A DNA stretch of 26,556 nt from a virus (Duplodnaviria; Caudoviricetes), in IMG/VR virus record IMGVR_UViG_3300043447_000329, positions 1 to 26,556 of that record; one strand, given 5' to 3'. The notes below the pieces were generated by a model. It was given only the letters and a program-made list of their open reading frames with translations, made no database searches and had not been told where the DNA came from. Position numbers and translations under genes: made by a program. Shown one piece after another: positions 2,156-26,556 of this stretch (position 1 is its first letter; every line of letters begins with the position of its first letter).

Positions 2156-2347
2156 ATGATTATAATTGACCTATCCAAAGAAAAAAGCATAGAAAGTGCA
2201 TTAAGAACTTATAAACAAAAAGTTCAAAAGACCAAACAAATTCAAAAATTGAGGGAAAGACAAGAGTTTACAAAACCTTCGGTTATTAAGAGAGAAGAAA
2301 GGTTAAAAGCTATCTATGTACAACAAATAAAAAATGGTCTTAATTAA
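2156..2347 (+). CDS. rpsU: Ribosomal protein bS21 (phage-encoded)
   Basis: SIESALRTYKQKV...LRERQEFTKPSVIKREERLKAIY matches the bS21 pattern (ALRxxKxK...FxKPS) in a Bacteroidota-like form. 63 aa, basic. Confidence 0.9.
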   Translation: MIIIDLSKEKSIESALRTYKQKVQKTKQIQKLRERQEFTKPSVIKREERLKAIYVQQIKNGLN

Positions 2348-6733: not shown

Positions 6734-6741
6734 TATAAATA
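6734..6741 (-). promoter_or_regulatory. TATTTATA motif (putative late promoter)
   Basis: 3 nt upstream of the terL ATG, directly after a terminator. Confidence 0.6.
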
Positions 6742-10274: not shown

Positions 10275-11048
10275 TTATTGTGTTATGGACAATTTCTTAT
10301 CTGTAATGTCCGTTTTAAGCTTTAATAACTTCCCTATATAACCATTTCTTCTTAGTAATTTGAACGTTAAGTTCTCATACGAATATTCACCACCCGAATC
10401 CAATCCACTTTGTCTAAATTTCTTAAGTTTCTTTCTAAGTTCATCAATTTTACTTGTAACATCAACTCCCTTTTCACCCAAACTTATTAACTTATCAATT
10501 TTATTACCATATTCTAAACCTTTTTCAAGAATAAGTCTATCGTCAATATTAGGTTTAGTTTTTTCAGGTTTTACTACCCATTCATTATGTAATATTGAAT
10601 ACACACCAGATGATATATGTTCCTCATCCACATCTTGTACGTAAATTTCAACATCATAACCTTTAATTGTTATGTTGTGTGTTTCATTCCACACGTTCTT
10701 TTTAGCATCGAAAAATTCTTTAACTATTTCATTAATACCTTTTGATGTTTTATCTCCAATCTCATCAAAATCAATTAAAATGTGTAAATCAACATCTGAA
10801 AAATCAGACCAATTATAATTTGATAACGACCCCGTCAACACAATATCGTGTACAAAAAATTCAACCCCCAACGTATCAATAAAATTATCTGAAATTTCTA
10901 ATAATTTTTTTCTAATGTCGTCACGCATTTGATAATTACCCTCACTCCCGTCAAATATTTGATTAGAAAGGGTGTCCTTAGATTTAAAAGACTTAACGAT
11001 TTTGTCGTCTAATTCTTTGTCCTCAATTAAATCTTCAAATAAACTCAT
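10275..11048 (-). CDS. Nucleotidyltransferase (Pol-beta superfamily)
   Basis: LTGSLSNYNWSDFSDVDLHI fits GS-x10-DxD, with a third acidic residue in YDVEIYVQD. Confidence 0.8.
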   Translation of the reverse strand: MSLFEDLIEDKELDDKIVKSFKSKDTLSNQIFDGSEGNYQMRDDIRKKLLEISDNFIDTLGVEFFVHDIVLTGSLSNYNWSDFSDVDLHILIDFDEIGDKTSKGINEIVKEFFDAKKNVWNETHNITIKGYDVEIYVQDVDEEHISSGVYSILHNEWVVKPEKTKPNIDDRLILEKGLEYGNKIDKLISLGEKGVDVTSKIDELRKKLKKFRQSGLDSGGEYSYENLTFKLLRRNGYIGKLLKLKTDITDKKLSITQ

Positions 11049-11876: not shown

Positions 11877-13895
11877 ATGTCTGTAGATTTTTTTGAAGAG
11901 GGACCAACCACAAATCCTAAAAAAGTAAGAAAAGGGTCGAACACTCCGATTCTTGATAATTTTTCTCGAGACTTAATTAAAATGGCCGAGGAAGGTAAAA
12001 TTGATCCCGTAGTTGGAAGGGACAAAGAGGTAAAAAGAATTGCACAGATTCTATCTCGTAAAAAGAAAAATAATGCTGTTATCGTTGGAGATGCGGGTGT
12101 TGGTAAATCGGCGTTAGTTGAGAAATTAGCCATTATGATTTATAAGGGTGAATGTCCTTCTAATCTGTTAGATAAACGAGTAATGTCACTTGATTTAACA
12201 TCGTTGGTCGCGGGTACAAAATATCGAGGTCAATTTGAAGAAAGAATTAAGGCAATCCTAAACGAATTACAAGAAAATCCAAACGTAATTGTATTCATTG
12301 ATGAATTACATACTATGGTGGGTGCCGGTAATGCGAGTGGTGCTATGGATGCTGCAAATATTCTTAAACCCGCATTGGCACGTGGTGAAATACAATGTAT
12401 CGGAGCAACTACATTTGATGAATTTAAAAAACACATCGAAAAAGATGCTGCTTTAGTTAGACGATTCCAAAAAGTAATCTTAAAAGAACCAACTCAAGAA
12501 GAAACAATTGAAATTTTAAGAAACCTACAAGAATCTTATCAAGAATTTCATAAAGTATCATATGATGAGGGGGTTGTTGAATCTATCGTAAAACTTTCAC
12601 ATCGTTATATTACGGATAGACAATTTCCCGATAAGGCTATTGACGTATTAGATGAATTAGGTTCAGAAAAACGAGTATCGAGTCGTATTCCTGAATCAAT
12701 TGAAAAATTGAAACGTGATGTTGATGAAATTAAAGAAAAGAAATTACAAGTAGTAAAAAATCAAAATTACGAACAAGCTGCAAAACTTCGTGATGAAGAA
12801 AAGAAAATTATTAATAAGCTTGAAGATGAGAAATTAAAGTGGGCGGACAAACAAAAGAATAATAAAACACCCGTTAGTGTAAACGATGTTTATGATATTA
12901 TTTCAGATATGACTGGTGTCCCAATTACAAAATTGGATAGTAAGGAAACACAAAAGTTACTCAAATTAGAATCTATTCTATCGGCAAAAGTAATCGGTCA
13001 AGATGAGGCTATAACGTCTATATCGAAATCTATTAGAAGAAACCGTGTTGGAATAAAAGATGGTAATAAACCAATTGGTTCGTTTATTTTTATTGGTTCA
13101 ACTGGTGTGGGTAAAACATTTTTAGCAAAATCGATTGCTGACATTTTATTCGGTGACCCCGAAAAAATTATTCGTGTGGATATGAGTGAGTTTATGGAGA
13201 AACACAATGTCTCTAAATTAATTGGTTCTCCTCCAGGATATGTTGGTTACGACGAAGGAGGTCAATTAACTGAAAAAGTTAAAAACAACCCATTCTCTGT
13301 GATTTTATTCGACGAAATCGAAAAGGCACACAAAGATGTTTTCAATTTGTTATTACAAATTTTAGATGAGGGTCATTTAACCGATTCGTTTGGTCGTAAG
13401 GTTAATTTCACTAACACCATTATTATTATGACATCCAATATTGGTGCTAAACGTGTATCTGAATTTGGTGGAGGTGTAGGATTTTCAACATCATCAAGCG
13501 AACAACAAAAGTATGAAGTTAAAAAGACGATGATTCAAAAATCGTTGAAGCAACAATTCAATCCTGAATTTTTAAATCGTATAGATGATGTTATTCTATT
13601 CAATTCTTTAGATACTGAAACTCTTAAGAAAATTATCACCATTGAAATGGGTAAACTTAATTCTCGTTTAAGTGATAAGAATTATAAGATTACATTTGAT
13701 AAAACTGTTATCAATAGAATTTTTGAATTAAACAGTCAAGAAGAATACGGAGCTCGTCCACTTAAAAGAATTATACAGAACCTTTGTGAGGATTTTTTAA
13801 GTGAAGAAATTCTAAAAGGTAATATTGTTGAAAATCAAGCATACACAATTAAGTACAAAAATGACGAATTAACCATTACTAAAAATTCTAAGTAA
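11877..13895 (+). CDS. clpC: ClpC-like AAA+ ATPase lacking the N-terminal Clp-repeat domain
   Basis: Two NBDs (GDAGVGKS/FIDELH and GSTGVGKT/LFDEIEK), pore loops KYRG and GYVG, UVR-type M-domain (QNYEQAAKLRDEE), and VGF ClpP-docking loop. Confidence 0.93.
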   Translation: MSVDFFEEGPTTNPKKVRKGSNTPILDNFSRDLIKMAEEGKIDPVVGRDKEVKRIAQILSRKKKNNAVIVGDAGVGKSALVEKLAIMIYKGECPSNLLDKRVMSLDLTSLVAGTKYRGQFEERIKAILNELQENPNVIVFIDELHTMVGAGNASGAMDAANILKPALARGEIQCIGATTFDEFKKHIEKDAALVRRFQKVILKEPTQEETIEILRNLQESYQEFHKVSYDEGVVESIVKLSHRYITDRQFPDKAIDVLDELGSEKRVSSRIPESIEKLKRDVDEIKEKKLQVVKNQNYEQAAKLRDEEKKIINKLEDEKLKWADKQKNNKTPVSVNDVYDIISDMTGVPITKLDSKETQKLLKLESILSAKVIGQDEAITSISKSIRRNRVGIKDGNKPIGSFIFIGSTGVGKTFLAKSIADILFGDPEKIIRVDMSEFMEKHNVSKLIGSPPGYVGYDEGGQLTEKVKNNPFSVILFDEIEKAHKDVFNLLLQILDEGHLTDSFGRKVNFTNTIIIMTSNIGAKRVSEFGGGVGFSTSSSEQQKYEVKKTMIQKSLKQQFNPEFLNRIDDVILFNSLDTETLKKIITIEMGKLNSRLSDKNYKITFDKTVINRIFELNSQEEYGARPLKRIIQNLCEDFLSEEILKGNIVENQAYTIKYKNDELTITKNSK

Positions 13896-14748: not shown

Positions 14749-14964
14749 ATGAAAAAAGTAACATTTATTTTAGCTCTTGGTGTAATGTTTACACTAGCAG
14801 CTTGTGGTTCAGAGTCAACCGCAAATCAAACAACTGACTCAACTGCAGTTCAAGCTGATACTACCGCAGTATCAACTGATTCTACAACATCAGGCGCACC
14901 AGTTGAAGCAACTGAATTGAAATCAGATGTAGAGAAACCAACTTCTAACGAAGAAGTTAAATAA
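14749..14964 (+). CDS. Small lipoprotein (71 aa, Thr/Ser/acidic)
   Basis: MKK + hydrophobic core + LAAC lipobox. Has its own promoter and terminator. Confidence 0.85.
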   Translation: MKKVTFILALGVMFTLAACGSESTANQTTDSTAVQADTTAVSTDSTTSGAPVEATELKSDVEKPTSNEEVK

Positions 14965-15017: not shown

Positions 15018-15440
15018 ATGGAAAATGTTTTTACGGGTGATTTAATTCTTTTAAGAGGAATACCCGGTTCGGGGAAAAGTACATTAGCAAATATAATTTT
15101 ATTACAACCAAATAATAATCCACAGGAAGTTTTATCCGCGGATGATTTTTTTGTTGACAATAACGGAGATTATGTTTTTGATGGAACTAAAATAAAAGAA
15201 GCGCACAATTATTGTCAATTTAGATGTTCAGAAAGAATGAGACAAGGTATTGCCAGAATTGTTGTTGCTAACACATTTACTCAAGAATGGGAAATGGAGA
15301 CTTATTTTAATATGGCCGAAAGATACAACTATAGGGTTCATAGTGTAATTGTAGAAAATAGACACGGGAATGAAAATGTTCACGGAGTTCCTGAAGATAA
15401 ACTTCATCAAATGAAGGATAGGTTTCAAATCAAATTATAA
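15018..15440 (+). CDS. P-loop kinase (AAA_33 / polynucleotide kinase-like)
   Basis: LLRGIPGSGKST, SADDFF, VVANTF, NVHGVP. Lies upstream of an RNA ligase. Confidence 0.85.
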   Translation: MENVFTGDLILLRGIPGSGKSTLANIILLQPNNNPQEVLSADDFFVDNNGDYVFDGTKIKEAHNYCQFRCSERMRQGIARIVVANTFTQEWEMETYFNMAERYNYRVHSVIVENRHGNENVHGVPEDKLHQMKDRFQIKL

Positions 15441-15554
15441 GTGAGTCAATTTATTGAATCTTTTATCAAATCAGTACACCCACCACAAAAAACACCAATC
15501 AAAAATTGTGTTAACTACATTAGAAAAATATTACGAAAATGGTTTGTTACATAA
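15441..15554 (+). CDS. Possible 37-aa ORF overlapping the ligase start
   Basis: GTG immediately after the kinase stop, giving MSQFIESFIKSVHPPQKTPIKNCVNYIRKILRKWFVT. Confidence 0.3.
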   Translation: MSQFIESFIKSVHPPQKTPIKNCVNYIRKILRKWFVT

Positions 15555-16716
15555 ACAAACCCACCCAACTCTTGATTTAACTATTTGGAATTATACACCA
15601 AAAGTTCAGTATGAAAGATTATGGGACGATATTACTATACAGTGTCGTGGATTAGTTACCAATTCAAAAGGTGAAATTGTTGCTCGACCATTCAAAAAAT
15701 TCTTTAATTATGAAGAACACAAGCCGGAAGATATTCCTAACGAAAATTATGTTGTCTATGAAAAAATGGATGGATCTTTAGGTATTCTTTTTTATTATGA
15801 ATATGAATTGAGTGATGAGAGGAGATATAACATATGGTTTAATAACAATTATGAGACGGGTATGGAAAGATTCTTTGACCCGAAAAACTTACCTGATTTT
15901 GATGACCCATATTACGAACCAACCCCAAAAAGAAAAGGTGAATGGATAATGGCAACTCGTGGTTCATTCACATCATCACAGGCAATAAAGGGGAAAGAGA
16001 TATTAGATAAAAAATATGACATTAGTTCATTAAGAAAAGATAACACATATTTGTTTGAAATAATTTTTCCTGAAAATAGAATTGTTGTTGATTATGGTGA
16101 TGAAGAAAAATTAGTTGTTCTTGGGGCTATACATACTGAAACCGGCGATGAAGTTCCTGACAGTAGTATATTTTTTATGCAAGAAGGTGGGTTTGAAATT
16201 GTCACAACGTATAAAACGTGGGGTGAGGGATATGATTTACTTAAAGAAGAAATTAGTAAAGATAAAGAAGGTTATGTAATTCGTTTTAAAAATGGTTTTC
16301 GTATGAAAATTAAAGGAGATGAATATGTTAGACTACATAAAATTTTAACTAACATCTCTAATCGTGATATATGGGAGTATTTGAAAGATAATAAACCATT
16401 TGATGAATTACTTGAACGAGTACCCGATGAATTTAACGATTGGGTTAAAGAAACGGTTCGAGATTTAAGATATACTTGTTATCATATCCGTGAAACTGCG
16501 GGTAAATTACACGATAGATTTAGGTACGGTTTATACAATGATGTGAACCCTGAACCAACTAAAAAGGAATTTGCCAACTATGTAATTAAACAACCAGAAC
16601 ACTTACACGCAATTATGTTTGCAATGTGGGATGGAAATAATAAAAAAGTAGATGAAATAATTTGGAAATTAATAAAACCAAAATATTCAAAACCATTTAA
16701 GAAAGATGAAAATTGA
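15454..16716 (+). CDS. RNA ligase, T4 Rnl1-like (true start possibly GTG 15508)
   Basis: CRGLV...ARPFKKFFN, motif I EKMDGS, ATRGSF, FEII, EGYVI, MKIK. Confidence 0.9.
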   Translation: MNLLSNQYTHHKKHQSKIVLTTLEKYYENGLLHKQTHPTLDLTIWNYTPKVQYERLWDDITIQCRGLVTNSKGEIVARPFKKFFNYEEHKPEDIPNENYVVYEKMDGSLGILFYYEYELSDERRYNIWFNNNYETGMERFFDPKNLPDFDDPYYEPTPKRKGEWIMATRGSFTSSQAIKGKEILDKKYDISSLRKDNTYLFEIIFPENRIVVDYGDEEKLVVLGAIHTETGDEVPDSSIFFMQEGGFEIVTTYKTWGEGYDLLKEEISKDKEGYVIRFKNGFRMKIKGDEYVRLHKILTNISNRDIWEYLKDNKPFDELLERVPDEFNDWVKETVRDLRYTCYHIRETAGKLHDRFRYGLYNDVNPEPTKKEFANYVIKQPEHLHAIMFAMWDGNNKKVDEIIWKLIKPKYSKPFKKDEN

Positions 16717-17185
16717 AAAAAAGAGAATATATCTTGATGACGTAAGAACACCATTACAAGATGATTGGATTGTGGTAAGAAATTATGATGATTTTGTTGG
16801 TAAAATAAAACTTCACGGTTTAGAAAATATTGAATCGATTTCTTTAGATCACGATTTAGGGGATAGTGCAATGTTTGAATATTACAATAACGTAAAGGAT
16901 AATTATGAATTAAATTATTCAAACATTACTGAAAAAACCGGTTATGACTGTTGTAAATTTTTGGTTGGTCACAGTATGGAAAAAAACATACCATTACCTC
17001 AAATATATGTACACTCAGCTAACCCAATAGGGAGTGCAAATATGGTAGGTTATATTAACAATTATTTTAAAAATTGTAAATCACCTCAAGTTTGTGTGCA
17101 GGTTAATATCCCACATACTATTAGTGAGGAATTTCATTTGTCACCTGAATTAAGAGAAAAAAAATGGAAAAGAAGAGGTGATTAA
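16706..17185 (+). CDS. Cyclic-phosphate-processing receiver-like domain protein
   Basis: IYLDDVR, ISLDHDLG, TGYD, VHSANPIG. Coupled to the RNA ligase. Confidence 0.8.
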   Translation: MKIEKKRIYLDDVRTPLQDDWIVVRNYDDFVGKIKLHGLENIESISLDHDLGDSAMFEYYNNVKDNYELNYSNITEKTGYDCCKFLVGHSMEKNIPLPQIYVHSANPIGSANMVGYINNYFKNCKSPQVCVQVNIPHTISEEFHLSPELREKKWKRRGD

Positions 17186-17236: not shown

Positions 17237-17572
17237 ATGACCAAAACTACTAACACCACCAAACAAAAGTATTTCAAAGAGTTAAAAATAGACGGGAAAT
17301 ACAATGATTTCAGTGACTTTTATGATGAAAACAAGGAAACTATTTATAAGTCAATTATTGAGGTTTTCAAGGAGTTTAAAGACACTAAGAAAAGGAAACT
17401 AACACTTAACATCTCAGCTAAAATCAAAGGTTTAGAATGGGATACCGAATTTAACTTCGATAGGACCGAAACAATCGTATTAAAAAGGGACGTGATGCCT
17501 TATTTTGAAGAAATTGAAGATTATGAGACTTGTGGTGAAATATTAAATTTACACAATTGCTTGACTTTGTAA
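17237..17572 (+). CDS. Hypothetical protein with a C-terminal UVR-like motif
   Basis: 111 aa ending FEEIEDYETCGEILNL. TATTTTTG (-7-like) at 17209-17216. Confidence 0.7.
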   Translation: MTKTTNTTKQKYFKELKIDGKYNDFSDFYDENKETIYKSIIEVFKEFKDTKKRKLTLNISAKIKGLEWDTEFNFDRTETIVLKRDVMPYFEEIEDYETCGEILNLHNCLTL

Positions 17573-17591
17573 AAATAATTACATAGATTTA
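17560..17591 (+). promoter_or_regulatory. Bacteroidota-like promoter for candidate sRNA 2
   Basis: CTTG, 20-nt spacer, TAGATTTA (one mismatch in each box). Confidence 0.45.
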
Positions 17592-17595
17592 TATT

Positions 17596-17663
17596 GTATC
17601 AGGAGAGAGGTACATTTATTTTTGTCATATCCCCAAGGGTTTCTAACTTTTGGGGATTTTTTT
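17596..17663 (+). ncRNA. Candidate antisense sRNA 2
   Basis: Promoter, ~32-nt single-stranded segment, then terminator. The segment is complementary to the start of the mRNA of the gene at 19402 (13/13 seed plus extension over the AUG). Confidence 0.5.
17629..17663 (+). terminator. Intrinsic terminator
   Basis: ATCCCCAAGGGTT-tct-AACTTTTGGGGAT followed by T6. Confidence 0.8.
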
Positions 17664-17776
17664 ATTTTAAAAATTTAATTGTACTTTATAAAGAACTTCT
17701 TGTTAATATCCTATTTTTCTTGGTATTCTAATATTTTTGTTGTACTTTTCTAATAGTTATATAAAAAAAATACAAT

Positions 17777-17926
17777 ATGTTAAATTTACTTATAGGTCTC
17801 TTCGTTTTATGTTCCTCATTTGGGATTACATTATCTAAAGTACAAACTCAATATGGAGTTCGTAAACAACGTCAACACATCAAACCATTAACTTTGGATA
17901 AAGATGTGTTACAACATAACTCTTGA
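17777..17926 (+). CDS. Small single-TM protein (49 aa)
   Basis: Not in the track: MLNLLIGLFVLCSSFGITLSKVQTQYGVRKQRQHIKPLTLDKDVLQHNS. TAGTTATA at 17754-17761. Overlaps the convergent gene by 18 nt. Confidence 0.5.
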   Translation: MLNLLIGLFVLCSSFGITLSKVQTQYGVRKQRQHIKPLTLDKDVLQHNS

Positions 17927-19402
17927 CCCAATCAAGAAGTTATTAAGCATTGGTGAACCTGGTTCGGTATTTAAATTTAATTTATAGTTAAAGCTAAATC
18001 CGAATCTCTTGGTTATTTTATAATCAATACTACTACCCAATAAGAAACCAACTTGTCTACCCACCATAGTACCTCCTGTGAATGTATTATACCCCAATGG
18101 TGAATACATAGTAAAAATTTGTGGCGATATCGTCAATTTCTTACTATACTGATACGGTTTAGTCCAAAATACAACGGCAGAAGTTGATAGACTCGTTGTA
18201 TATGATTCTTCTCCTTTCATTAATAAAGTTATTAAACCGATATTATAACCATACGTACCTAATTTTGGGTGAGGTTTAATCCAAGTGTAACCTAATAACC
18301 CCATTAACGTTCCTTTTAAATACGCTGACGTAAATGAATAACTATTAATTGAGTTTAATTGACCCTTATCTGTTAATTTCATTACTGTCACACCTGAGGA
18401 TAAAGCAAATTGGTCAAATGTGGAAAACGCCATACCATTTAGACTATATGACTTATCACCCATTAAAGAAGATTTAGACAAACCAACAGTCATAGCTAAT
18501 GAATAACTTCCATCTGGTGATTGTGCGGTTGTTAAATCAGAGGCGATTAACATCGGATTCATATTTTGTTGTTTTTTCTTTTCCTCTTTTTTCTTTTCTT
18601 CCTTTTTTTCTTCCTTTTTTTCTTCCTTTTTTTCTTCTTTCTTCTCTTCCTTTTTTTCTTCCTTTTTTTCCTCAGATTTTTTTTCTTCTTTTTTTTCCTC
18701 ATTCTTACTTTCCGATTTTTTTTCTTCCGACTTACTTTCCGATTTTGATTCACTCTTACTTTCTGATTTTGTTTCAGATTTAGTTTCAGTCTTTGTTTCA
18801 GTTTTACTTTCCGAAGATGAAGACGAACTTCCACTATTAGAAGATGAGCTATTAGAAGATGAAGAACTACTAGGTGGTGGAGTACTTGATGATGAACTTG
18901 GTGGTGGTGTACTCGCCGCAGCACTCGAACTTGCGGCAGACGACGCACTCGAACTTGCCGCACTTGATGCTGAACTACTTGCGGCCGAACTTGCAGCGGT
19001 AGAGGCCGCATTACTAGCGGCAGATGATGCACTTGAACTTGCAGCATTTGCGGCCGCGTTCGCCGCGGCATTTGCGGCCGCAGCAGCTGCTTGTGTAGTT
19101 GCTGCTGCTACTTGTTGAGTAACCGTTTGTTGAACAACTATATTAGTTGGACAAGCCATACTATTATATGCCGCATATGTTTGTTGTAACCAAGCTTGTA
19201 ACACCCCACTTTGAACTTGTGCGGGTGTGAATGTTTTTATTTGATTATAGAACATAACAACTGCATTACCATTAACATATGTGGTTGTTGCAATTTTAAT
19301 TTCACCAGAACATTTATCAACAAATGTTTGGGTCATTATCGTTTGACCTTTAGATGTGAAACTTAACAATATTATCAGGAGAGAGATAAATATTTTTTTC
19401 AT
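17909..19402 (-). CDS. Exported protein with a long low-complexity stalk and putative C-terminal beta-barrel
   Basis: Signal peptide, two-Cys N-domain, Ala/Ser, Pro/Ser, ETKS and EKKE tracts, then alternating beta-strands ending in FLIGSRVML. Confidence 0.7.
   Translation of the reverse strand: MKKIFISLLIILLSFTSKGQTIMTQTFVDKCSGEIKIATTTYVNGNAVVMFYNQIKTFTPAQVQSGVLQAWLQQTYAAYNSMACPTNIVVQQTVTQQVAAATTQAAAAAANAAANAAANAASSSASSAASNAASTAASSAASSSASSAASSSASSAASSSAAASTPPPSSSSSTPPPSSSSSSNSSSSNSGSSSSSSESKTETKTETKSETKSESKSESKSESKSEEKKSESKNEEKKEEKKSEEKKEEKKEEKKEEKKEEKKEEKKEEKKKEEKKKQQNMNPMLIASDLTTAQSPDGSYSLAMTVGLSKSSLMGDKSYSLNGMAFSTFDQFALSSGVTVMKLTDKGQLNSINSYSFTSAYLKGTLMGLLGYTWIKPHPKLGTYGYNIGLITLLMKGEESYTTSLSTSAVVFWTKPYQYSKKLTISPQIFTMYSPLGYNTFTGGTMVGRQVGFLLGSSIDYKITKRFGFSFNYKLNLNTEPGSPMLNNFLIGSRVML
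18570..18810. repeat. Coding 12-nt tandem repeats (EKKE / ESKS / ETKS units)
   Basis: Iterated (TTTTTTCTTCCT)-like units inside the 497-aa gene. Confidence 0.85.
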
Positions 19403-19411
19403 TATTCTTTT

Positions 19412-20143
19412 TTAATCCATCAATTTTAAATTGTAATCGTTTATTGTGAAGGGACTATAAACTGAATACCTAACATTATCAGATAAATTTTCAGTCACTT
19501 CGTGTGTGTAGTTATATTTTTGATGCTCTATCAAAATACATTTTCTGTAATCCGGTATAACATCAACAATTCCGTTTTCGGAATACAACTTTAAAATCGA
19601 ACCTTCTTCTATTGTTCTATTATCATTTAAAAAAAATAAAATAGTAAATAAACGATTACCGTCAGGATCATTATCCGTATGTTTCCTAATAAATGAACCT
19701 TTTGGGTAAACATTTATATTACCCATTAAACTTTCCTTATGTTCGTTCTTAACATTCTTACCAAACAAATCGAATAATATTTTTTCATATACATTCGATA
19801 AAATCGAATAGGTTCCATTATCTTTTAAACATTGTATTGGGTGAGTTAAAAAGAAATTAAAATAATCCTTATCGTCAAACCCAAATTCCCCATTTAAATT
19901 TCTCAGAAATTTAAAATCATCATATGTAATTTGATAATCAGAATCAATTCGATTATATCTTAATAAATCAATATCTTTAAATGTATTTTGTAGACTATCT
20001 GACCATTGTAAAAACCCTAAAGCACTTTTAATTTCGTTCAAGTTGATATTAAAATTATTTATCAATTCACCTAAACGTATAAATTCATTATTATCTAATA
20101 AATTTTCTAATTCGTAAACTTTATAATCGAAATCTAAAATCAT
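19412..20143 (-). CDS. 2OG-Fe(II) oxygenase
   Basis: FIRKHTD (HxD), RLFTILFFLN, HEVT, RYS. Confidence 0.85.
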   Translation of the reverse strand: MILDFDYKVYELENLLDNNEFIRLGELINNFNINLNEIKSALGFLQWSDSLQNTFKDIDLLRYNRIDSDYQITYDDFKFLRNLNGEFGFDDKDYFNFFLTHPIQCLKDNGTYSILSNVYEKILFDLFGKNVKNEHKESLMGNINVYPKGSFIRKHTDNDPDGNRLFTILFFLNDNRTIEEGSILKLYSENGIVDVIPDYRKCILIEHQKYNYTHEVTENLSDNVRYSVYSPFTINDYNLKLMD

Positions 20144-20952
20144 TATTTATTATTTAATCCTATACCAAATTCGGTATATCCTCTTATTGGGTCTCTATCT
20201 AATTTTAATGTAAAAAATTTGAAGTCTTTAATTAAACCAATTTTAAATGTCGTAAAATTTGAATTAGATTTTGGAAACGATATTCCACCAAGGTCATCTT
20301 TACCTTGATATCTAATCACCTCATTACCAAAACCTATCATTCCGTGAATACCTAAACTTCCGTACCTTTTACCAACACCAAGATATAATGCACCTTGTTT
20401 AATGAAGTCATTTTTACTCAAAGGAAAATCTACTTCGTTAATTTTACCGTAAGGAAAATATTGATTTCGGTCAATTTCGTAAGTTGTAACATAGTTTATT
20501 ATGAAATAGCTCTTACCACCACCAATTTCACCCCAATAAGACATTTGTTTGTTAGTTGTGTGACCAAGACCTACTGTGTAGTAAATTGGTTTTGAAATTG
20601 TGTCTCGTTTACCATTTTCATAAATTCTAATTTCACTTCTTTGTCTCCACCCATAGTTATCGTACCAAATATATGGGTAAGGTTGGTACCATCCGAATGC
20701 GTTATAGTGTAACCCATATGGATTTACAATTGTTGGTCTCCATCTACGAACTAATGGTTTGTCGGGAATTGATTGACCAGGTCTAATTGGTTCCGTTTGA
20801 GTTCTCCATCTACTAACATCACTTCTTTGAGGTATTGATGGTTGAATTCTCGGTGATTCGACACGTTGTTGTGGAGGATTACTTCTCCAAGATGACACTT
20901 GACCAAATAGGAATGTCGGAATTAATAGGATTGTGAATAAAATCGTTTTCAT
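20143..20952 (-). CDS. Exported protein, putative small outer-membrane beta-barrel with an R/P/W/Y-rich N-terminal region
   Basis: Signal peptide and amphipathic strands (LYLGVGKRY, FKIGLIKDF, TEFGIGLN). Confidence 0.65.
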   Translation of the reverse strand: MKTILFTILLIPTFLFGQVSSWRSNPPQQRVESPRIQPSIPQRSDVSRWRTQTEPIRPGQSIPDKPLVRRWRPTIVNPYGLHYNAFGWYQPYPYIWYDNYGWRQRSEIRIYENGKRDTISKPIYYTVGLGHTTNKQMSYWGEIGGGKSYFIINYVTTYEIDRNQYFPYGKINEVDFPLSKNDFIKQGALYLGVGKRYGSLGIHGMIGFGNEVIRYQGKDDLGGISFPKSNSNFTTFKIGLIKDFKFFTLKLDRDPIRGYTEFGIGLNNK

Positions 20953-21128
20953 ACACTTTTAGTTAAAATTGTTGTTATTATATAACCGGTTATTATAGGA
21001 ACAGGGGAAAATATTAGAAAAAAAAATAATAATCTCCAAACCAACGGATCTACGTTAGTGTGATGACCCAATCCCTCACATACACCAAAAAACACTTTAT
21101 TATCGTATATTCTATAAAACTTCTTCAT
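20949..21128 (-). CDS. pspC: PspC domain membrane protein (59 aa)
   Basis: Not in the track: MKKFYRIYDNKVFFGVCEGLGHHTNVDPLVWRLLFFFLIFSPVPIITGYII..., with the GVCxGL...D...R signature. Overlaps the next gene by ATGA. Confidence 0.85.
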   Translation of the reverse strand: MKKFYRIYDNKVFFGVCEGLGHHTNVDPLVWRLLFFFLIFSPVPIITGYIITTILTKSV

Positions 21129-21132
21129 ATCT

Positions 21133-21140
21133 TATAAATA
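21133..21140 (-). promoter_or_regulatory. TATTTATA motif (putative late promoter)
   Basis: 4 nt before the pspC ATG, immediately after a terminator. Confidence 0.6.
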
Positions 21141-21141
21141 T

Positions 21142-21167
21142 AAAAAAAGGGGTTATTACACCCCTTT
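21142..21167 (-). terminator. Intrinsic terminator
   Basis: AAAGGGGT-tattac-ACCCCTTT with A7 on plus. Confidence 0.75.
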
Positions 21168-21192
21168 GTTATACATTCTTTAAAATTGTTAA

Positions 21193-21915
21193 TTATTTAG
21201 TAAAAATACCCTTTTTAATCATCCTATCAAGAATATTGGCACAAGCTATGTCTAATGCTTTTTTAGTTGCAATTGATATTGTTGATTGATTAAATTTAAT
21301 CGGGTCTACGGTTGCGTCAGATAATAATGTTAATTCCCTTCTTGTTGTGGCCTCACCTAAACCTGAAGCCCCAAATAGGACACCAGTCTCGGCGTCGGTA
21401 AATCTAACCTGTAAACCAATACGAGTTACCATATTATCTTTAATACCATCTTTTAAATTAATAGTCTCATCTTCCGATATGGAGTAATCATAACATTCAA
21501 TTGTAACAAAGTATTTTGCTAAATTAATCTTACCACGACCATCTAATTTATTTTCAGAAATACCCGCTTGTGAGGCTTGGAATTGTTTTACCATACGATT
21601 CTTAATCTCCGTCTTATCTTCGGTAAATTTGAATCTATTCAAGTTTTCAAGATACTCCATTGATATATTAGCAACACCTAAACCTACACGTTTTTCCTTT
21701 AATTCAGGGTACATTTCATAAATTTCATCCGATATACCACATTTAAGAATTTGAATCGGTATTTGAGGACCTTCATAGTCCATATATGCGGAAATATCTC
21801 TTTTCTTTTCAAAATCCGCTTTATACTGTTCAGTTTTGGTTGAACCTATTGTTTGTCCATTAACGGCAACAGCGCTTAATAAAAAACCACTTAATAATAC
21901 TAATAATTTTTTCAT
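21193..21915 (-). CDS. CsgG/TolB-N-like exported protein
   Basis: Signal peptide, LENLNRFKFTE (cf. L..sgrF.vvE), AKYFVT, and IGLQVRFTDAETG...ASGLGEA pattern of the CsgG-like fold. Confidence 0.6.
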   Translation of the reverse strand: MKKLLVLLSGFLLSAVAVNGQTIGSTKTEQYKADFEKKRDISAYMDYEGPQIPIQILKCGISDEIYEMYPELKEKRVGLGVANISMEYLENLNRFKFTEDKTEIKNRMVKQFQASQAGISENKLDGRGKINLAKYFVTIECYDYSISEDETINLKDGIKDNMVTRIGLQVRFTDAETGVLFGASGLGEATTRRELTLLSDATVDPIKFNQSTISIATKKALDIACANILDRMIKKGIFTK

Positions 21916-21918
21916 ACA

Positions 21919-22152
21919 TTACATTTCTTTTAAACAAATTTTGTCTAATTCTTCTTGTCTAAGTGCTACGGTAGAAATTACATCTTCATTATCCGATAAA
22001 ATGTTCACTAACCACAAACCTAAACGTTTATCACCAATTTCAATTTTTTGACCCTCAATAAATCCCATTTCCATCATTCTTAGTCTCAAACAAGGTGTAC
22101 ATTTCTGACAATTTAATGGTTCTGGTATGTCTATGATGTCATAAATCTTCAT
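21919..22152 (-). CDS. feoA: FeoA-family SH3-like protein
   Basis: RLRMMEMGFIEGQKIEI...VALRQEE..KI, plus an extra CxxCxxC. Confidence 0.75.
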   Translation of the reverse strand: MKIYDIIDIPEPLNCQKCTPCLRLRMMEMGFIEGQKIEIGDKRLGLWLVNILSDNEDVISTVALRQEELDKICLKEM

Positions 22153-22157
22153 ATCAG

Positions 22158-22385
22158 TTATTTTTTCGGACCTTCATACCATATATTATCTGGATTATTT
22201 TTAAAAGTTCCGTCTATTTTCCAAGATATTTGATTTGATAAATTTCTAGCTCTTTCTTCTTGACCCGTAAAATGTAGGTATATACCAAAGCTTTGAAAAC
22301 TTAATGCAAAAACAAGCCAAATACCAACCAATCCAAGATAAAGTTGGAAAATTTTTTCTCCAATGTTTTTAAATGATAAAGTCAT
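22158..22385 (-). CDS. Small membrane protein (75 aa)
   Basis: One hydrophobic helix. TATTTATA 13 nt upstream. Confidence 0.7.
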   Translation of the reverse strand: MTLSFKNIGEKIFQLYLGLVGIWLVFALSFQSFGIYLHFTGQEERARNLSNQISWKIDGTFKNNPDNIWYEGPKK

Positions 22386-22398
22386 AAAATATTTTATA

Positions 22399-22406
22399 TA
22401 TAAATA
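22399..22406 (-). promoter_or_regulatory. TATTTATA motif (putative late promoter)
   Basis: Between a terminator and ATG 22385. Confidence 0.55.
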
Positions 22407-22411
22407 TATCG

Positions 22412-22440
22412 AAAAAAAAAGGAGGATTTAAATCCTCCTT
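22412..22440 (-). terminator. Intrinsic terminator
   Basis: 22-bp palindrome AAGGAGGATTTAAATCCTCCTT with A9 on plus. Confidence 0.8.
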
Positions 22441-22447
22441 CTTTATA

Positions 22448-22696
22448 TTAACCTTCGATTTCTTCTTTCTTTTTATGAGAGAATTTATCCATAGTATCGG
22501 CACCCATCCCAATTCCTGTAATAATCATTACCGCATTCACCAACTCAGGTGATGGTGCGAAATCCGCGTGAGAGAACGAATTTAAAATCATTGTAATACA
22601 TAGAAATAATGCTCCAATAAATGCTATCACTGGTTTTACCGAAATTGATCCCCTTTCATCTTTGAAAAGTTCAATAACCCATTCTTTAAAATTCAT
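22448..22696 (-). CDS. Two-TM membrane protein (holin-like topology)
   Basis: Two hydrophobic helices and a charged C-tail. No endolysin is visible in the window. Confidence 0.65.
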   Translation of the reverse strand: MNFKEWVIELFKDERGSISVKPVIAFIGALFLCITMILNSFSHADFAPSPELVNAVMIITGIGMGADTMDKFSHKKKEEIEG

Positions 22697-22734
22697 TTTT
22701 GTCGTTTTTATATTAGTTTATTTGGTCGTTTTAA

Positions 22735-23343
22735 TTATCCTTCCATATGCATTTCAGCATATTCGTCTTTAATTTTACCACATTTCAAACATTCTTCAGT
22801 ACCATCACCGTCTAAATCACCCCAAACGTGTTCACATTGTCTGTGTGCAAAATATTCATCAATTTTACCATCACCATCAAAATCTAAACCATCCATTACA
22901 CCATCACCGTCTTCATCGATTTCAACACCTTTCTTTTCTACTTTTGGAGTTTCAATTTCTACAATTTCTTGTATCGTCGATTCTGACAGTACTAATGGTG
23001 CGGTTGACATTGGTATAATCGGAGTATTAGGACCATCGGCAGTATTACTTAATGATATACCGTCTTCCTCGTCCATTTTTTGAACTAACATCTTATCTTT
23101 ATCAGTATCACTGAACCAATAATCGATAATTTTACCATAAGACCCGATAAAGGCACCCAATAACAATAATAGAAGTTCTTTCCACTCCCCCTCAATTGTT
23201 GATTTATTCAGAATAGCACCGAATATACCCATTATGATAATCATAAAACCACCTAATACGATGGCCGTGATGAACCATCTACGCTTCATCATACTACTCA
23301 ATAATTCTTTGAACCCACTTGGTGGTTGTTGTTGTTCACTCAT
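22735..23343 (-). CDS. Two-TM membrane protein with DxDxDG Ca-binding-like loops and a Cys/His cluster
   Basis: DEDGDG, DFDGDG, DLDGDG, and CEHVW...CLKC. Confidence 0.75.
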   Translation of the reverse strand: MSEQQQPPSGFKELLSSMMKRRWFITAIVLGGFMIIIMGIFGAILNKSTIEGEWKELLLLLLGAFIGSYGKIIDYWFSDTDKDKMLVQKMDEEDGISLSNTADGPNTPIIPMSTAPLVLSESTIQEIVEIETPKVEKKGVEIDEDGDGVMDGLDFDGDGKIDEYFAHRQCEHVWGDLDGDGTEECLKCGKIKDEYAEMHMEG

Positions 23344-23434
23344 CTTTTTTTTCTATTTTAAAACTATATCTTATTAGGAACAATAATAATCCCATAAAGA
23401 ATACTATTGTTCCGATTTGATAATAAATTACCAT
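23336..23434 (-). CDS. Possible 32-aa single-TM microprotein
   Basis: MVIYYQIGTIVFFMGLLLFLIRYSFKIEKKDE fills the gap and overlaps both neighbours. Confidence 0.5.
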   Translation of the reverse strand: MVIYYQIGTIVFFMGLLLFLIRYSFKIEKKDE

Positions 23435-23742
23435 TGAGCAGGTTTTTCCTTAAACTCGTCACCTTCTTTTTTCTTTACAGGTGCCGCTGGTTTAGCAGGT
23501 TCTACCGATTTTTCTTTAATAATAACAGTCTTACCACCTGCGGCTTGTTGTTGTGCCTGTTGGTTTGAATTTGTAATATTAATCACAGGTGCCGCTTGTT
23601 GTACCGGAGTCTCCTCTTTATCTCCACCCGTTAATTGTGTTGTGAACCAACCACCTACACCTAGTGTAATGGTTGATACAAGTCCTAATAGGATGTTCTT
23701 TAATGAACCACCTGTACTTTCTGATTTTTCTTCTTCTGCCAT
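23428..23742 (-). CDS. Single-TM protein with a disordered Gln/Pro/Lys tail
   Basis: ILLGLVSTITLGVGGWF helix. 104 aa. Confidence 0.7.
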   Translation of the reverse strand: MAEEEKSESTGGSLKNILLGLVSTITLGVGGWFTTQLTGGDKEETPVQQAAPVINITNSNQQAQQQAAGGKTVIIKEKSVEPAKPAAPVKKKEGDEFKEKPAQW

Positions 23743-23766
23743 TGTATTTTGTTTTATATATTATAA

Positions 23767-24138
23767 TTATTGTACTTTATTAAAATCTGTAATTCCTAAT
23801 TGTTTTCCGTTAGAATCAAATAAACCAATTCTATATGCTGATGATGGTAATGCGTTGGTGTAAACTTTTAAAAGATTGTCGCCAGCAACAACATTCATCG
23901 TTTCTTTAGATACTACTCTATTGGCGATATCAAATATTTTAACTGTTACCGAACCCGCCGTTTCAGTTTTAACATTCATTGCAACTTCAGATGTTACAAA
24001 AGCAGTTTGTAACTTAATACCCACTGAACTTGTCATCTTAAGTTCCTCCGATACTGACTGAGGTGTTGGTACTATATCCTCTTTATAACAACCTGTTAAA
24101 ATTGTGGATATTAGTACAATTGAGAGAATTTTTTTCAT
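23767..24138 (-). CDS. Lipoprotein consisting mostly of a T9SS type-A CTD-like Ig domain
   Basis: LTGC lipobox, then VTVKIFDIANRVV...NALPSSAYRIGL...TDFNK. Confidence 0.65.
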   Translation of the reverse strand: MKKILSIVLISTILTGCYKEDIVPTPQSVSEELKMTSSVGIKLQTAFVTSEVAMNVKTETAGSVTVKIFDIANRVVSKETMNVVAGDNLLKVYTNALPSSAYRIGLFDSNGKQLGITDFNKVQ

Positions 24139-24150
24139 TTTTGTTAATTT

Positions 24151-24492
24151 TTAATTTATAATTATTTTTGTCTTTTTTAATTCATTTTTATTCACATCCT
24201 CAAGTACTAAATATAAATATCCCTTAGGTAATGAATTAGTAAAAATCTTCTTTACATTTTCACCACTTTGTCCAATAAACCTTTCCCGACTTATAACTTG
24301 ATTAGTGTTGATGTCAATCAAACTTAACATAAACGTACCCGCTGACGGTAAATCAAAATATATAGATTGTCCGTTTATTACCTTACTTTCACCTACATTA
24401 AATATCTTTTCAACTGGCGCAATTGGTGTTGGTATATCTACTTTTGTACACCCAACCAATAAAAAAAATGGTATTAATATTATCTTTTTCAT
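24151..24492 (-). CDS. Lipoprotein with a T9SS CTD-like Ig domain (paralogue-like of its neighbour)
   Basis: LVGC lipobox, then LSLIDINTNQVI...NSLPKGYLYLVL...TKIIIN. Confidence 0.6.
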   Translation of the reverse strand: MKKIILIPFFLLVGCTKVDIPTPIAPVEKIFNVGESKVINGQSIYFDLPSAGTFMLSLIDINTNQVISRERFIGQSGENVKKIFTNSLPKGYLYLVLEDVNKNELKKTKIIIN

Positions 24493-26555
24493 TAGTTTAC
24501 TTTTACTTTTAATTGTGTCCCATTCTTATTAACCGCATCGGTATTTGAAACTGACGTCAATCCCAATGTACCATTCAACCCTATTAGTGGTAAGAATGTT
24601 ATTTTATATTCAGTTGTCTTATCCAATGTAGTTGAACCATCCGTTATCAATGAACCTAATGTTATAGATGAACCTCTATCAGTTCCAAAATTGGTAGGTG
24701 TTCCTTTTGTAGTGAATTCTACCTTTTCAAATTTTAGAGCAGTATTATCATAGTTTAAATTGAATTGAGTTCCCACTAATTCTTGTTGTAATGGGTCTAC
24801 TGATATAGTTACTATCAATTTACCACCAACATTTTCACCAATTAGATATGCGTTGATTTGATTTGAGACTGATTGGGTTGATAAACTCATAGTTCTCATT
24901 GAATTAGTTGCAACACTACTTACACTTTGTTGTGCTGAATGTGATAGATTCACATCACCCACCCAAGTCACGCTTATATTGTATGTATTATTTAACGAAC
25001 CTGTGTTTAAATTAAATGGATATAAACTTCTAGTTGAGTTAAACTTTGTATTCCAATTTGATTTGGTAATAGCATCATATTCTGATTTACTATATAACTT
25101 CATCAGATAAGTTAATGCTGAATATTGTGTAAGTGGTGCGACACCGGTTAGGTGTTGTAATAATTTATAGGTGTCCGCTTCGTTAAAAACACCATTACCA
25201 TCCACATCTGCATTCATATATTGTAAACCCGATGTGAATTCTAATCCACTTTCGTTTCCAAATAATCCACCCATTGATAGTTCTTTAAATGCTATGTAAA
25301 CATCTGACACACTCACAATACTATTATATAATGTATTTAATTCGGTTTGTGAATTTGCAATTATATCGATACCGTGTTGTTTGAATACTGATACTGGTGA
25401 AAATGAATATTCTGCTTTAAACGCGTACCACCCATCTTGCAATCTTATATTACTTTGAAATGAACTTGTTGACACTTTATTAGTTAAATCAATATTTCCT
25501 GGTACAACCCATTGTTTCCACCATCCGTTAAAATCCATAGGATTAATCGGACCTTCATATATGTCAAATAATTTTACGTATTTTATTGTGTTTAAATTAA
25601 TACCCGTTCCACTGAACACCCTTTCATCAATTTGTAATCTGTGTCCGTTTCTTGATGTTTCGTATGGATTTATAAGTGACCATTCTACTTGTCCTGGTAC
25701 TATTGTTGCTTTGATTCCATCACTTATTTTATTAGTATCCAAATCATTTGTAATATCCACCTTACCCAATCCACTTATTGATCTTGAAGTGTTATTTGTT
25801 ACACCCCATACGTTGTTTACGAAAGTGTTTGATTTAACAGAAAATTTAGTTTCGTCTACATTACCACCAAAATCAATATTAAATCGTGCAGTTAGGACTT
25901 CTCCGTTTGAGTGAGTGACTGAATTAGTATAAAACTCCGTAAATGTTGCATCATCAGGATTAGTCCAAGTTCCAAATTCAATTACATACGGATTCACAAA
26001 ATGGTTTGGTAAATCATTCCATTGGGAACCGTTCCATTTAGTTACCGCGTAATCTTCATTACCACTATTGTTTGGTTCACCTGGTGCCCAGTTATTGTAT
26101 TGACCAGGAATATTTCCATTTAATTGTCCATTATTGATTTTAATTAAAGTTCCCGCTTCAGGTCCCGCATCAATTGTCCATCTTGCTTCACTCGCTTCAT
26201 CGGTTAATGCAAACCAAATTGTGTTTTGAGGTACATTATTAAAAATAAACGCATCTTCATCCGCAGATGTAATTGTTACCAAATATCCTTGTTGTCCTTT
26301 AAATGTTTGTTGTGATGCTAATGTTCTAGCATTTGTATAAGTTGCTCCGGTTGATATTGGTCTATAAAAGTGTCCATTTGTTCCGTTATAAAAATATCCT
26401 GTTGGATTTACGGTTGCCGCCACCGATAATACAACATTACCTCTTACTGAACCTGTGTTTACTTTAAGAGATGATAATGCCGTATTGATATTTGCCATTG
26501 TACCTGTCACTACTAAACGAGTCTTATTACCCGATAAAATAAATCCACTCGCAGC
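24492..26555 (-). CDS. Large surface protein with C-type lectin, dockerin-like and cohesin-like domains (5' partial)
   Basis: Frame is open to the right edge. CTLD motifs GYLVTITSADED, YNNWAPGEPNN, WNDL. Dockerin-like ADVDGNGVFNEADTYKLLQHL and GDVNLS. Cohesin-like LVGTQFNLNYDNTALKF. Confidence 0.75.
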   Translation of the reverse strand, partial: AASGFILSGNKTRLVVTGTMANINTALSSLKVNTGSVRGNVVLSVAATVNPTGYFYNGTNGHFYRPISTGATYTNARTLASQQTFKGQQGYLVTITSADEDAFIFNNVPQNTIWFALTDEASEARWTIDAGPEAGTLIKINNGQLNGNIPGQYNNWAPGEPNNSGNEDYAVTKWNGSQWNDLPNHFVNPYVIEFGTWTNPDDATFTEFYTNSVTHSNGEVLTARFNIDFGGNVDETKFSVKSNTFVNNVWGVTNNTSRSISGLGKVDITNDLDTNKISDGIKATIVPGQVEWSLINPYETSRNGHRLQIDERVFSGTGINLNTIKYVKLFDIYEGPINPMDFNGWWKQWVVPGNIDLTNKVSTSSFQSNIRLQDGWYAFKAEYSFSPVSVFKQHGIDIIANSQTELNTLYNSIVSVSDVYIAFKELSMGGLFGNESGLEFTSGLQYMNADVDGNGVFNEADTYKLLQHLTGVAPLTQYSALTYLMKLYSKSEYDAITKSNWNTKFNSTRSLYPFNLNTGSLNNTYNISVTWVGDVNLSHSAQQSVSSVATNSMRTMSLSTQSVSNQINAYLIGENVGGKLIVTISVDPLQQELVGTQFNLNYDNTALKFEKVEFTTKGTPTNFGTDRGSSITLGSLITDGSTTLDKTTEYKITFLPLIGLNGTLGLTSVSNTDAVNKNGTQLKVKVN

Positions 26556-26556
26556 A

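Follow-up and report, generated by a model that had tools for sequence, protein, structure and literature searches.

A conserved small-RNA gene of large freshwater phages with predicted pairing to several starts of an envelope operon

Large freshwater phages possess a conserved gene for a predicted RNA of ~67 bases, which is likely to pair in trans with several starts of an envelope operon and would probably hold this likely late operon down. In the window (the whole stretch of 26,556 nucleotides analyzed here), the gene is found at 17596-17663 on the plus strand. It displays a promoter-body-terminator layout that is conserved in relatives, along with complementary sites in the operon that change jointly with the RNA. 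Because the RNA sequence mirrors several starts of the cluster and changes in step with them, we propose that it likely acts to keep the cluster down.

The phage in question is a large one, coding for a T4-type portal, a terminase, a prohead protease, an Hsp20 protein, and a Clp-type ATPase, and the metagenomes sharing at least half of the window's words (six runs) are all freshwater or aquatic. A bS21 gene (PF01165, E 9.9e-12) is located at 2156-2347 (+), on the opposite strand between the portal and prohead protease genes. This placement is shared with the bS21-encoding freshwater Bacteroidetes phages, for which the accessible part of PMC9723584 describes the same arrangement of bS21 among terminase, portal, and protease genes. 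The accessible main text of that study makes no mention of small RNA, sRNA, non-coding, or antisense, whereas the window phage carries a predicted sRNA gene.

Architecture and conservation of the RNA gene

The RNA gene (72.7 bits with our model R1; no conserved reading frame) follows a 111-aa gene of unassigned function (17237-17572, +), which also precedes it in relatives; a script called the RNA behind this gene in 201 of 224 loci, a total that includes repeats of one contig. Across large freshwater phages the gene recurs as 95 distinct sequences, and 87 sequences, including that of the window, were aligned. The layout is constant in relatives: the promoter is followed by a short (5-bp) hairpin, variable in its loop, then by U-rich sequence that closes with GUC, and lastly by the terminator. 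In the window, these elements are represented by a predicted promoter, TTGACT-17-TAGATT (17561-17589, +), which overlaps the last codons of the 111-aa gene; a probable 5-bp 5' hairpin (17596-17613, +), which is paired in relatives and whose purine loop (17601-17608) constitutes seed 1; the U-rich seed 2, ending in GUC (17614-17626, +), which is the most conserved part of the body and has complements at leaders and at the lipoprotein and holin-like starts; and an intrinsic terminator (17629-17663, +). The last, which the earlier note had described as strong, is indeed present as a stem (17629-17657) followed by a U tail, and the stem covaries in relatives.

The structure as a whole is paired in 96.5% of 1301 alignment cells, a value equaled by none of 500 shuffles. 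The terminator is paired in 95.4% of its cells, with two-sided changes in 8 of 10 pairs. For the 5' hairpin the figure is 98.6% (87 sequences), with a two-sided change in only one of five pairs; in the window's sequence alone, its pair probability is only 0.2, and another fold is lower in energy. The 13-mer at 17597-17609, which had been put forward as a free 5' seed, instead comprises the loop and one arm of this probable hairpin, and the better-conserved U-rich seed is situated 3' of it.

The promoter consensus is TTGAC-17-TAnAnT. Among 95 distinct promoters, the TA is seen in 94, the A in 85, and the final T in 93; the promoters were selected by TTGAC, and hence its 100% conservation is by construction, which is not the case for the -10 box. 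The first G lies 35 nt past TTGAC in 71 of the 95, the -10 box is at a fixed distance, and conservation of the body begins 7 nt after it. The sigma-A promoter of Bacteroidetes has a -7 box of the form TAnnTTTG, as given in the available part of PMC9723704. Its final G is present in only 9 of the 95 distinct promoters and absent from 86; hence, the promoter resembles the standard sigma-70 type more than the Bacteroidota type. Thus, the promoter predicted earlier is present and conserved, but its assignment as Bacteroidota-like is not borne out.

Several other roles for the same letters were considered and rejected. A small peptide from either strand of the RNA gene is ruled out by length changes in non-multiples of three, and pairing between TTGAC of the promoter and the GTCA that closes the body by the lack of joint change. 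It is also unlikely that the AGGAG loop mimics a Shine-Dalgarno or CsrA site, given that GGAGAG is missing from 17 of 71 pairs of RNA and barrel start and the RNA is nonetheless kept. Contigs from RNA runs (four runs, in small shares) are short only; one of them, 17469-17619, enters the RNA gene from the upstream gene. Such contigs show neither ends, strand, nor level, their gaps are uninformative, and the contig 17469-17619 may be DNA.

A relative of 316 kb contains only one strong copy of the RNA. Divergent versions, with new seeds matching their own leaders, were observed at 12644-12718 in locus L371, 17660-17722 in L475, and 19375-19445 in L467 (all on the minus strand). Rfam returned no family over the RNA at E values up to 5 and none at the gathering score in six related loci, and model R1 gave a best E of only 0.16 on Flavobacterium phage immuto (first 30 kb of 160 kb). 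A scan of 185,579 prokaryote genomes for the RNA pattern came back empty, and near-perfect complements of the RNA were restricted to two matches, in a Desulfobacula and an Enterousia record; scans of this kind would miss short host seeds.

In terms of class, the features recovered are those of a trans-encoded sRNA. Sequence and conservation place a promoter and a terminator around a short non-coding body; the RNA is encoded apart from its targets, with short and imperfect complementarity; and seed and target are conserved together at the operon leader, while for the barrel gene discussed below a tree-aware test is not significant. No overlap of the cis-encoded antisense kind was found, as the RNA ends at 17663, the barrel gene ends at 17909, and the nearest site is at 19373.

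Predicted sites at the operon leader and internal starts

Opposite the RNA gene, on the minus strand, is a stretch (17909-26556) that gene order in relatives identifies as the downstream part of an envelope gene cluster. Its products include a lectin and cohesin protein, lipoproteins with weak likeness to T9SS tails, PspC, a FeoA-like protein, membrane proteins, and the barrel protein. Another member, a 240-aa protein that we take to be CsgG-like, has a 54.8% homolog in Flavobacterium phage immuto and no Pfam or PDB sequence match. Judging from the sequences of relatives, the 5' end of the window's operon, which harbors the strongest site in those relatives, would lie past the window end.

Of the window's 25 minus-strand starts, 9 have the motif TATTTAT ahead of them, and these include the starts of the portal, terminase, and prohead protease genes; none of the seven plus-strand starts has it. 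From this strand bias and the association with structural genes, we infer a late promoter, and TATTTAT is accordingly a candidate for the late promoter of the phage group. It is seen 11-48 nt ahead of structural and envelope genes on the minus strand of the window (e.g., at 6741, 4912, 1613, 851, 22406, and 21140) and also ahead of the first cluster gene of the cultured Flavobacterium phage immuto (L550, gene at 10527).

When 20-kb loci were scanned with their own RNA, the best site in relatives was found to be the operon leader, located 5.5-8.5 kb upstream of the holin-like gene and directly behind TATTTAT. The leader outranks all other starts in 23 of the 24 loci. It beats all 20 shuffles in 24 of 24 (mean, -32.9; the leader of L410 was placed by hand after its match had been seen), while control leaders average -10.0 (n = 16, from loci lacking the 111-aa gene, with the window's RNA as the query; one of these, L467, carries a divergent RNA). 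In six further loci, which by locus identifier are outside the model alignment and most of which have divergent seeds, the leader again ranks at the top in all six. The site is kept with either type of first gene: in the 170-aa type it lies over the AUG, and in the 215-aa type it is non-coding, the best site in these leaders of 71-96 nt being tens of bases before the AUG. An activating refold of the leader was considered and set aside, as most of 11 leaders show no gain in start accessibility. A clade of six loci (L374, L377, L379, L384, L385, and L388), with no RNA gene in view, has another motif of ~15-20 nt common to the leader and the holin-like start; this clade may have an unrelated RNA of its own elsewhere.

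Within the window, the best starts after opening costs are those of the barrel (-21.2), lipoprotein (-13.2), and holin-like (-11.4) genes, followed by the next at -7.5 (n = 32); these three are the same families that carry sites in relatives. The lipoprotein site (24114-24144, -), second of the 32 starts, is predicted at the start of a 123-aa lipoprotein-like gene (23767-24138), near which a further GACAAAAAT occurs at 24164-24172. Among 30 pairs from relatives, 27 have a lipoprotein start that outscores every one of 20 shuffles. The third-ranked site (22691-22703, -) is predicted to form 13 bp, with one G-U, across the AUG of an 82-aa holin-like gene (22448-22696, -), whose start outscores the full set of 20 shuffles in just 16 of 33 pairs. 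The corresponding count for the start of a 550-aa gene is 10 of 23, and for three control genes it is 4 of 33, 3 of 30, and 3 of 31. 

The holin-like start is of particular relevance to the nearly invariant GUC of the RNA, which is unexplained by the barrel site and has its complement here. Where the RNA is of the GUC type, the holin-like leader has GACAAA in 25 of 30 rows, as against none of the four with other RNA types; the hexamer is also present in 2 of 21 rows without the 111-aa gene in view, many of which are kin and two of which are truncated. The exact match of this start to its own RNA extends over 19 nt in L363 and 14 nt in L410, and in L371, which has a different seed, its own holin-like leader matches that seed (-30.5). 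The 82-aa protein has no Pfam or PHROG match; its feature likeness of 0.92 to a cluster with DUF2644, a domain that is presumably holin-like, on 38% of members is a lead only.

Two other target proposals were dismissed. The lipoprotein start at 14749 has a raw value of -20 but falls outside the top ten after opening costs, and a genome-wide GACAAAA regulon is contradicted by the motif counts in the 316-kb relative (21 and 45), which equal the control (24 and 43). In three loci (L255, L015, and L246), the start of a homolog of the window's 75-aa membrane gene has gained a 15- to 18-nt match to seed 2 that is absent from the window's copy.

The barrel gene and joint change of sites and seeds

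The cluster ends with a gene that converges on the RNA gene and encodes a 497-aa beta-barrel protein (17909-19402, -) with a signal-peptide-like start, a low-complexity linker, and a C-terminal 12-stranded outer membrane beta-barrel. The model of the C-terminal 212 residues has a mean pLDDT of 83.3 (31.7 for single-sequence prediction), and the best folds are NanC, KdgM, FapF, and autotransporter barrels (Foldseek E of 1.2e-05 for NanC; TM of 0.65 for FapF). Hence, the view that the target is an outer membrane barrel in a late cluster is supported by the predicted 12-stranded fold, the lateness of the cluster being probable. The linker (18560-19110, -) consists of Ala/Ser, Ser/Pro, and Glu/Lys repeats and varies in length, giving proteins of ~435-600 aa in relatives. 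No match to the barrel domain or to the 111-aa and 82-aa proteins was found in any cultured phage searched.

The predicted site in this gene (19373-19402, -) runs from the AUG through codon 10. The original observation behind the earlier note, that the 13-mer at 17597-17609 is identical to 19373-19385, is reproduced: these are its only two occurrences in the window, even with two mismatches allowed, where chance gives a mean of 0.34 matches and at least two matches in 3 of 100 shuffles. As had been noted, the 13-mer is antisense to about codons 6-10 (precisely, codons 7-10 and the final base of codon 6), and the pairing extends across the AUG, with a predicted 27 bp within the first 30 bases of the gene. 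The predicted duplex comprises 16 bp (one G-U), a 4x2 internal loop, 7 bp, a G/A mismatch, and 4 bp over AUGA, with an energy of -32.4 kcal/mol (-21.2 after opening costs). The expectation that the 19402 site would stand above background is likewise upheld, as it ranks first of the 32 window starts whether or not opening costs are counted, and the RNA body, when shuffled by dinucleotides 150 times, never equals it (best shuffle, -23.9).

For the behavior of this site in relatives, 75 distinct pairs of RNA and barrel start were collected, of which 71 were kept after removal of starts other than M-K/R-K/R. CTCTCC is present at the barrel start in 41 of 54 pairs whose RNA has a GGAGAG loop and in none of the 17 pairs without GGAGAG. 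The register among the 41 also follows the RNA: long loops face CT in 28 of 30 cases, short loops of one type face AT in nine of nine, and those of the other type face AC in two of two, the AC register changing a Ser to Pro. The site uses CTC; across 14 genes of the window, this codon encodes just 2 of the 465 Leu residues. A tree test based on the barrel domain yields 6 independent pairs, of which a mean of 4.1 change the same way and none the opposite way, with a median p of 0.125 (not significant); the tree of the 111-aa protein offers only two independent pairs for the same test. Most relatives have a C/A mismatch in the barrel site where the window has a pair. The barrel start beats all 20 shuffles in 15 of 21 pairs and is the best of 36 starts in one whole relative (20 kb plus two 3-kb pieces scored). 

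Taken as a proposal that seed and target covary, the earlier note is therefore supported by their changing together, although the tree-aware test, which points the same way, is not significant. As a proposal about the target, it stands insofar as the barrel site is far above background, but the barrel gene is neither the only nor the main target. Given the absence of the site from 13 of the 54 pairs, we consider it secondary; in the window phage itself, it probably works.

Joint change is also seen at the leader. L491 and L511 have exact matches to their own leaders over 21 and 25 nt, respectively, and the two loci differ from each other at the same base in both RNA and leader, while the leaders of L467, L475, and L493 match their own divergent seeds. 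Permutation of partners gives p < 0.001 for each of the four kinds of site (barrel, holin-like, lipoprotein, and leader), yet a control gene also reaches 0.0002; as this indicates that the permutation p is inflated, we place weight on effect size and on single covarying pairs. The G-U orientation of substitutions fits a plus-strand RNA in 36 cases and the opposite in 19, a weak signal from cases that are not independent.

Proposed mode of action, rival readings, and known phage RNAs

Taking these findings together, we propose that a sigma-70-type promoter of its own would drive synthesis of the RNA ahead of activation of the operon led by TATTTAT, and that the RNA would present two seeds, the purine loop and the U-rich stretch ending in GUC. 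Both seeds are predicted to bind the first 30-35 bases of the operon message, and one or both to bind internal starts, which in this phage would be those of the barrel (the strongest in the window), lipoprotein, and holin-like genes. Where the AUG is paired, initiation would be blocked, for which base-pairing sRNAs as covered in the available part of the review PMC12197685 provide a basis. Pairing at the operon 5' end might promote decay and consume the RNA; being consumed there, the RNA would allow expression of the operon only when its output exceeds the RNA pool. We regard it as very probable that the RNA pairs with its targets and, given pairing, as quite probable that repression is the net effect. 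The likely purpose is to control when, and in what amounts, the phage makes membrane proteins, exported proteins, and possibly lysis proteins, whose early production would harm the host. A more far-reaching version, which we offer tentatively and with considerable doubt, is a developmental switch made of RNA only, with no protein regulator: an early sRNA would cover membrane, exported, and holin-like starts, the non-coding 5' end would serve as a loop-to-loop decoy, and envelope remodeling, perhaps with lysis, would start sharply past a threshold of late transcription.

The site in 215-aa-type operons is a reason to ask whether pairing might be real but mainly not repressive, with the 5' end acting as a decoy that spares other targets, host ones included, or with pairing protecting the message. 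There the best site falls in non-coding sequence; in 8 of 11 leaders, the start is almost as accessible with that site blocked as without, and several of these leaders fold as a small hairpin with a pyrimidine loop opposite the loop of the RNA. Against this are three further sites on start codons within the same operon and the position of the leader site over the AUG in 170-aa-type operons; for host targets in particular, the prokaryote genomes yielded no copy of the pattern and only two complements, with short seeds escaping the scan. Hence, we consider this reading unlikely. The original idea of a dedicated silencer of the beta-barrel gene draws on the best window site, which leads by 8 kcal/mol, and on the joint change, the Ser-to-Pro replacement included. 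However, the RNA is still kept where the site is missing, in 13 of 54 matching-loop pairs and all 17 others, and the leader site, found in each of the 24 loci, is the stronger of the two, making exclusive dedication to the barrel very improbable.

Repression of several starts by a discrete RNA must also be weighed against a different origin of the acting species, as the 3' end or a cut fragment of the upstream plus-strand message, which would follow the same pairing logic. The terminator also closes the upstream genes, and an RNA-library contig, possibly DNA, bridges the gene end and the RNA body, but a conserved -10 box at a fixed distance, with conservation of the body starting 7 nt behind it, makes such an origin quite improbable. 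The matches might, finally, reflect no RNA pairing at all but direct repeats at the DNA level (recombination relics, gene conversion, or a protein-binding motif) or the A-rich composition of starts. The RNA gene and its sites are indeed direct repeats on one strand, MKK starts are A-rich, and the clade without the RNA in view also has a motif common to the leader and the holin-like start. Nevertheless, the sites are confined to starts of one operon and to the coding strand, they follow lineage-specific seeds base by base, dinucleotide shuffles preserving composition fail to reproduce them, and neighboring starts of the MKK type and others mostly fail to score (4/33, 3/30, and 3/31), so that we hold this explanation to be most improbable.

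Several parallels are offered by known RNAs. In enterobacteria, MicA and RybB are trans-encoded envelope sRNAs with a seed and an intrinsic terminator, which act on several outer membrane protein messages by imperfect pairing near start codons and into the early coding sequence. The window RNA differs from these in being phage encoded and aimed at phage genes, in having two seeds, and in reaching up to 25 exact bases at the leader. In the available part of the same review (PMC12197685), the c4 antisense RNA of P1 and P7 is described as a factor in the immunity of these temperate phages that base-pairs with the mRNA for their antirepressor. The likeness, as far as that part describes c4, is that a phage RNA targets the translation start region of a message from the same phage and probably presents its pairing bases in loops; unlike c4, the predicted targets are several envelope operon starts rather than an antirepressor, and there is no Rfam c4 match. 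Our RNA would work like c4 and the enterobacterial envelope sRNAs but is outside c4 membership.

The sections available of that review also list PAK_P4as15 (endolysin), STnc6030 (BTP1 tailspike), OOP, sar, and aQ as antisense RNAs each tied to one gene (PMC12197685). The window RNA is predicted, like these, to be a phage RNA damping the phage's own lysis, structural, or regulatory genes; it is unlike them in having a gene without target overlap, its targets being 1.8 to ~13 kb away. IpeX, which derives from a phage porin transcript and acts on host OmpC (PMC12197685, available part), is comparable as a phage-derived small RNA linked to a porin gene that controls outer membrane protein levels, but the window RNA is on the opposite strand, has its own predicted promoter, and matches phage messages. 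In the portion of the review at hand, phage small RNAs act on host messages or on one phage gene, and mostly in temperate phages (PMC12197685). Our literature search retrieved no description of the window RNA, although a survey of over ten thousand candidate viral RNAs (PMC10690425) may list it. 

In a large and widespread group of lake phages, a single RNA appears to be aimed at multiple genes in the phage's own envelope operon. Its sites are gained and lost gene by gene, one change altering a signal-peptide residue, and so provide a rare natural record of the evolution of an sRNA target set as well as a clean test of trans regulation in Bacteroidota hosts. The finding would also mean that expression of this unexplained operon has to be timed tightly, and if the holin-like site is real, the timing of lysis would be tied to an RNA.

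The neighborhood of the RNA gene has other features of potential interest. Upstream of it is a row of RNA-repair genes (15018-17185, +) coding for a kinase-like AAA_33 protein, a T4-type RNA ligase, and a cyclic-phosphate receiver. Between the terminator and the barrel stop is a short reading frame (17776-17927, +), which an RNA-library contig covers in part, and a similar frame occupies roughly the same place in relatives without the RNA gene.
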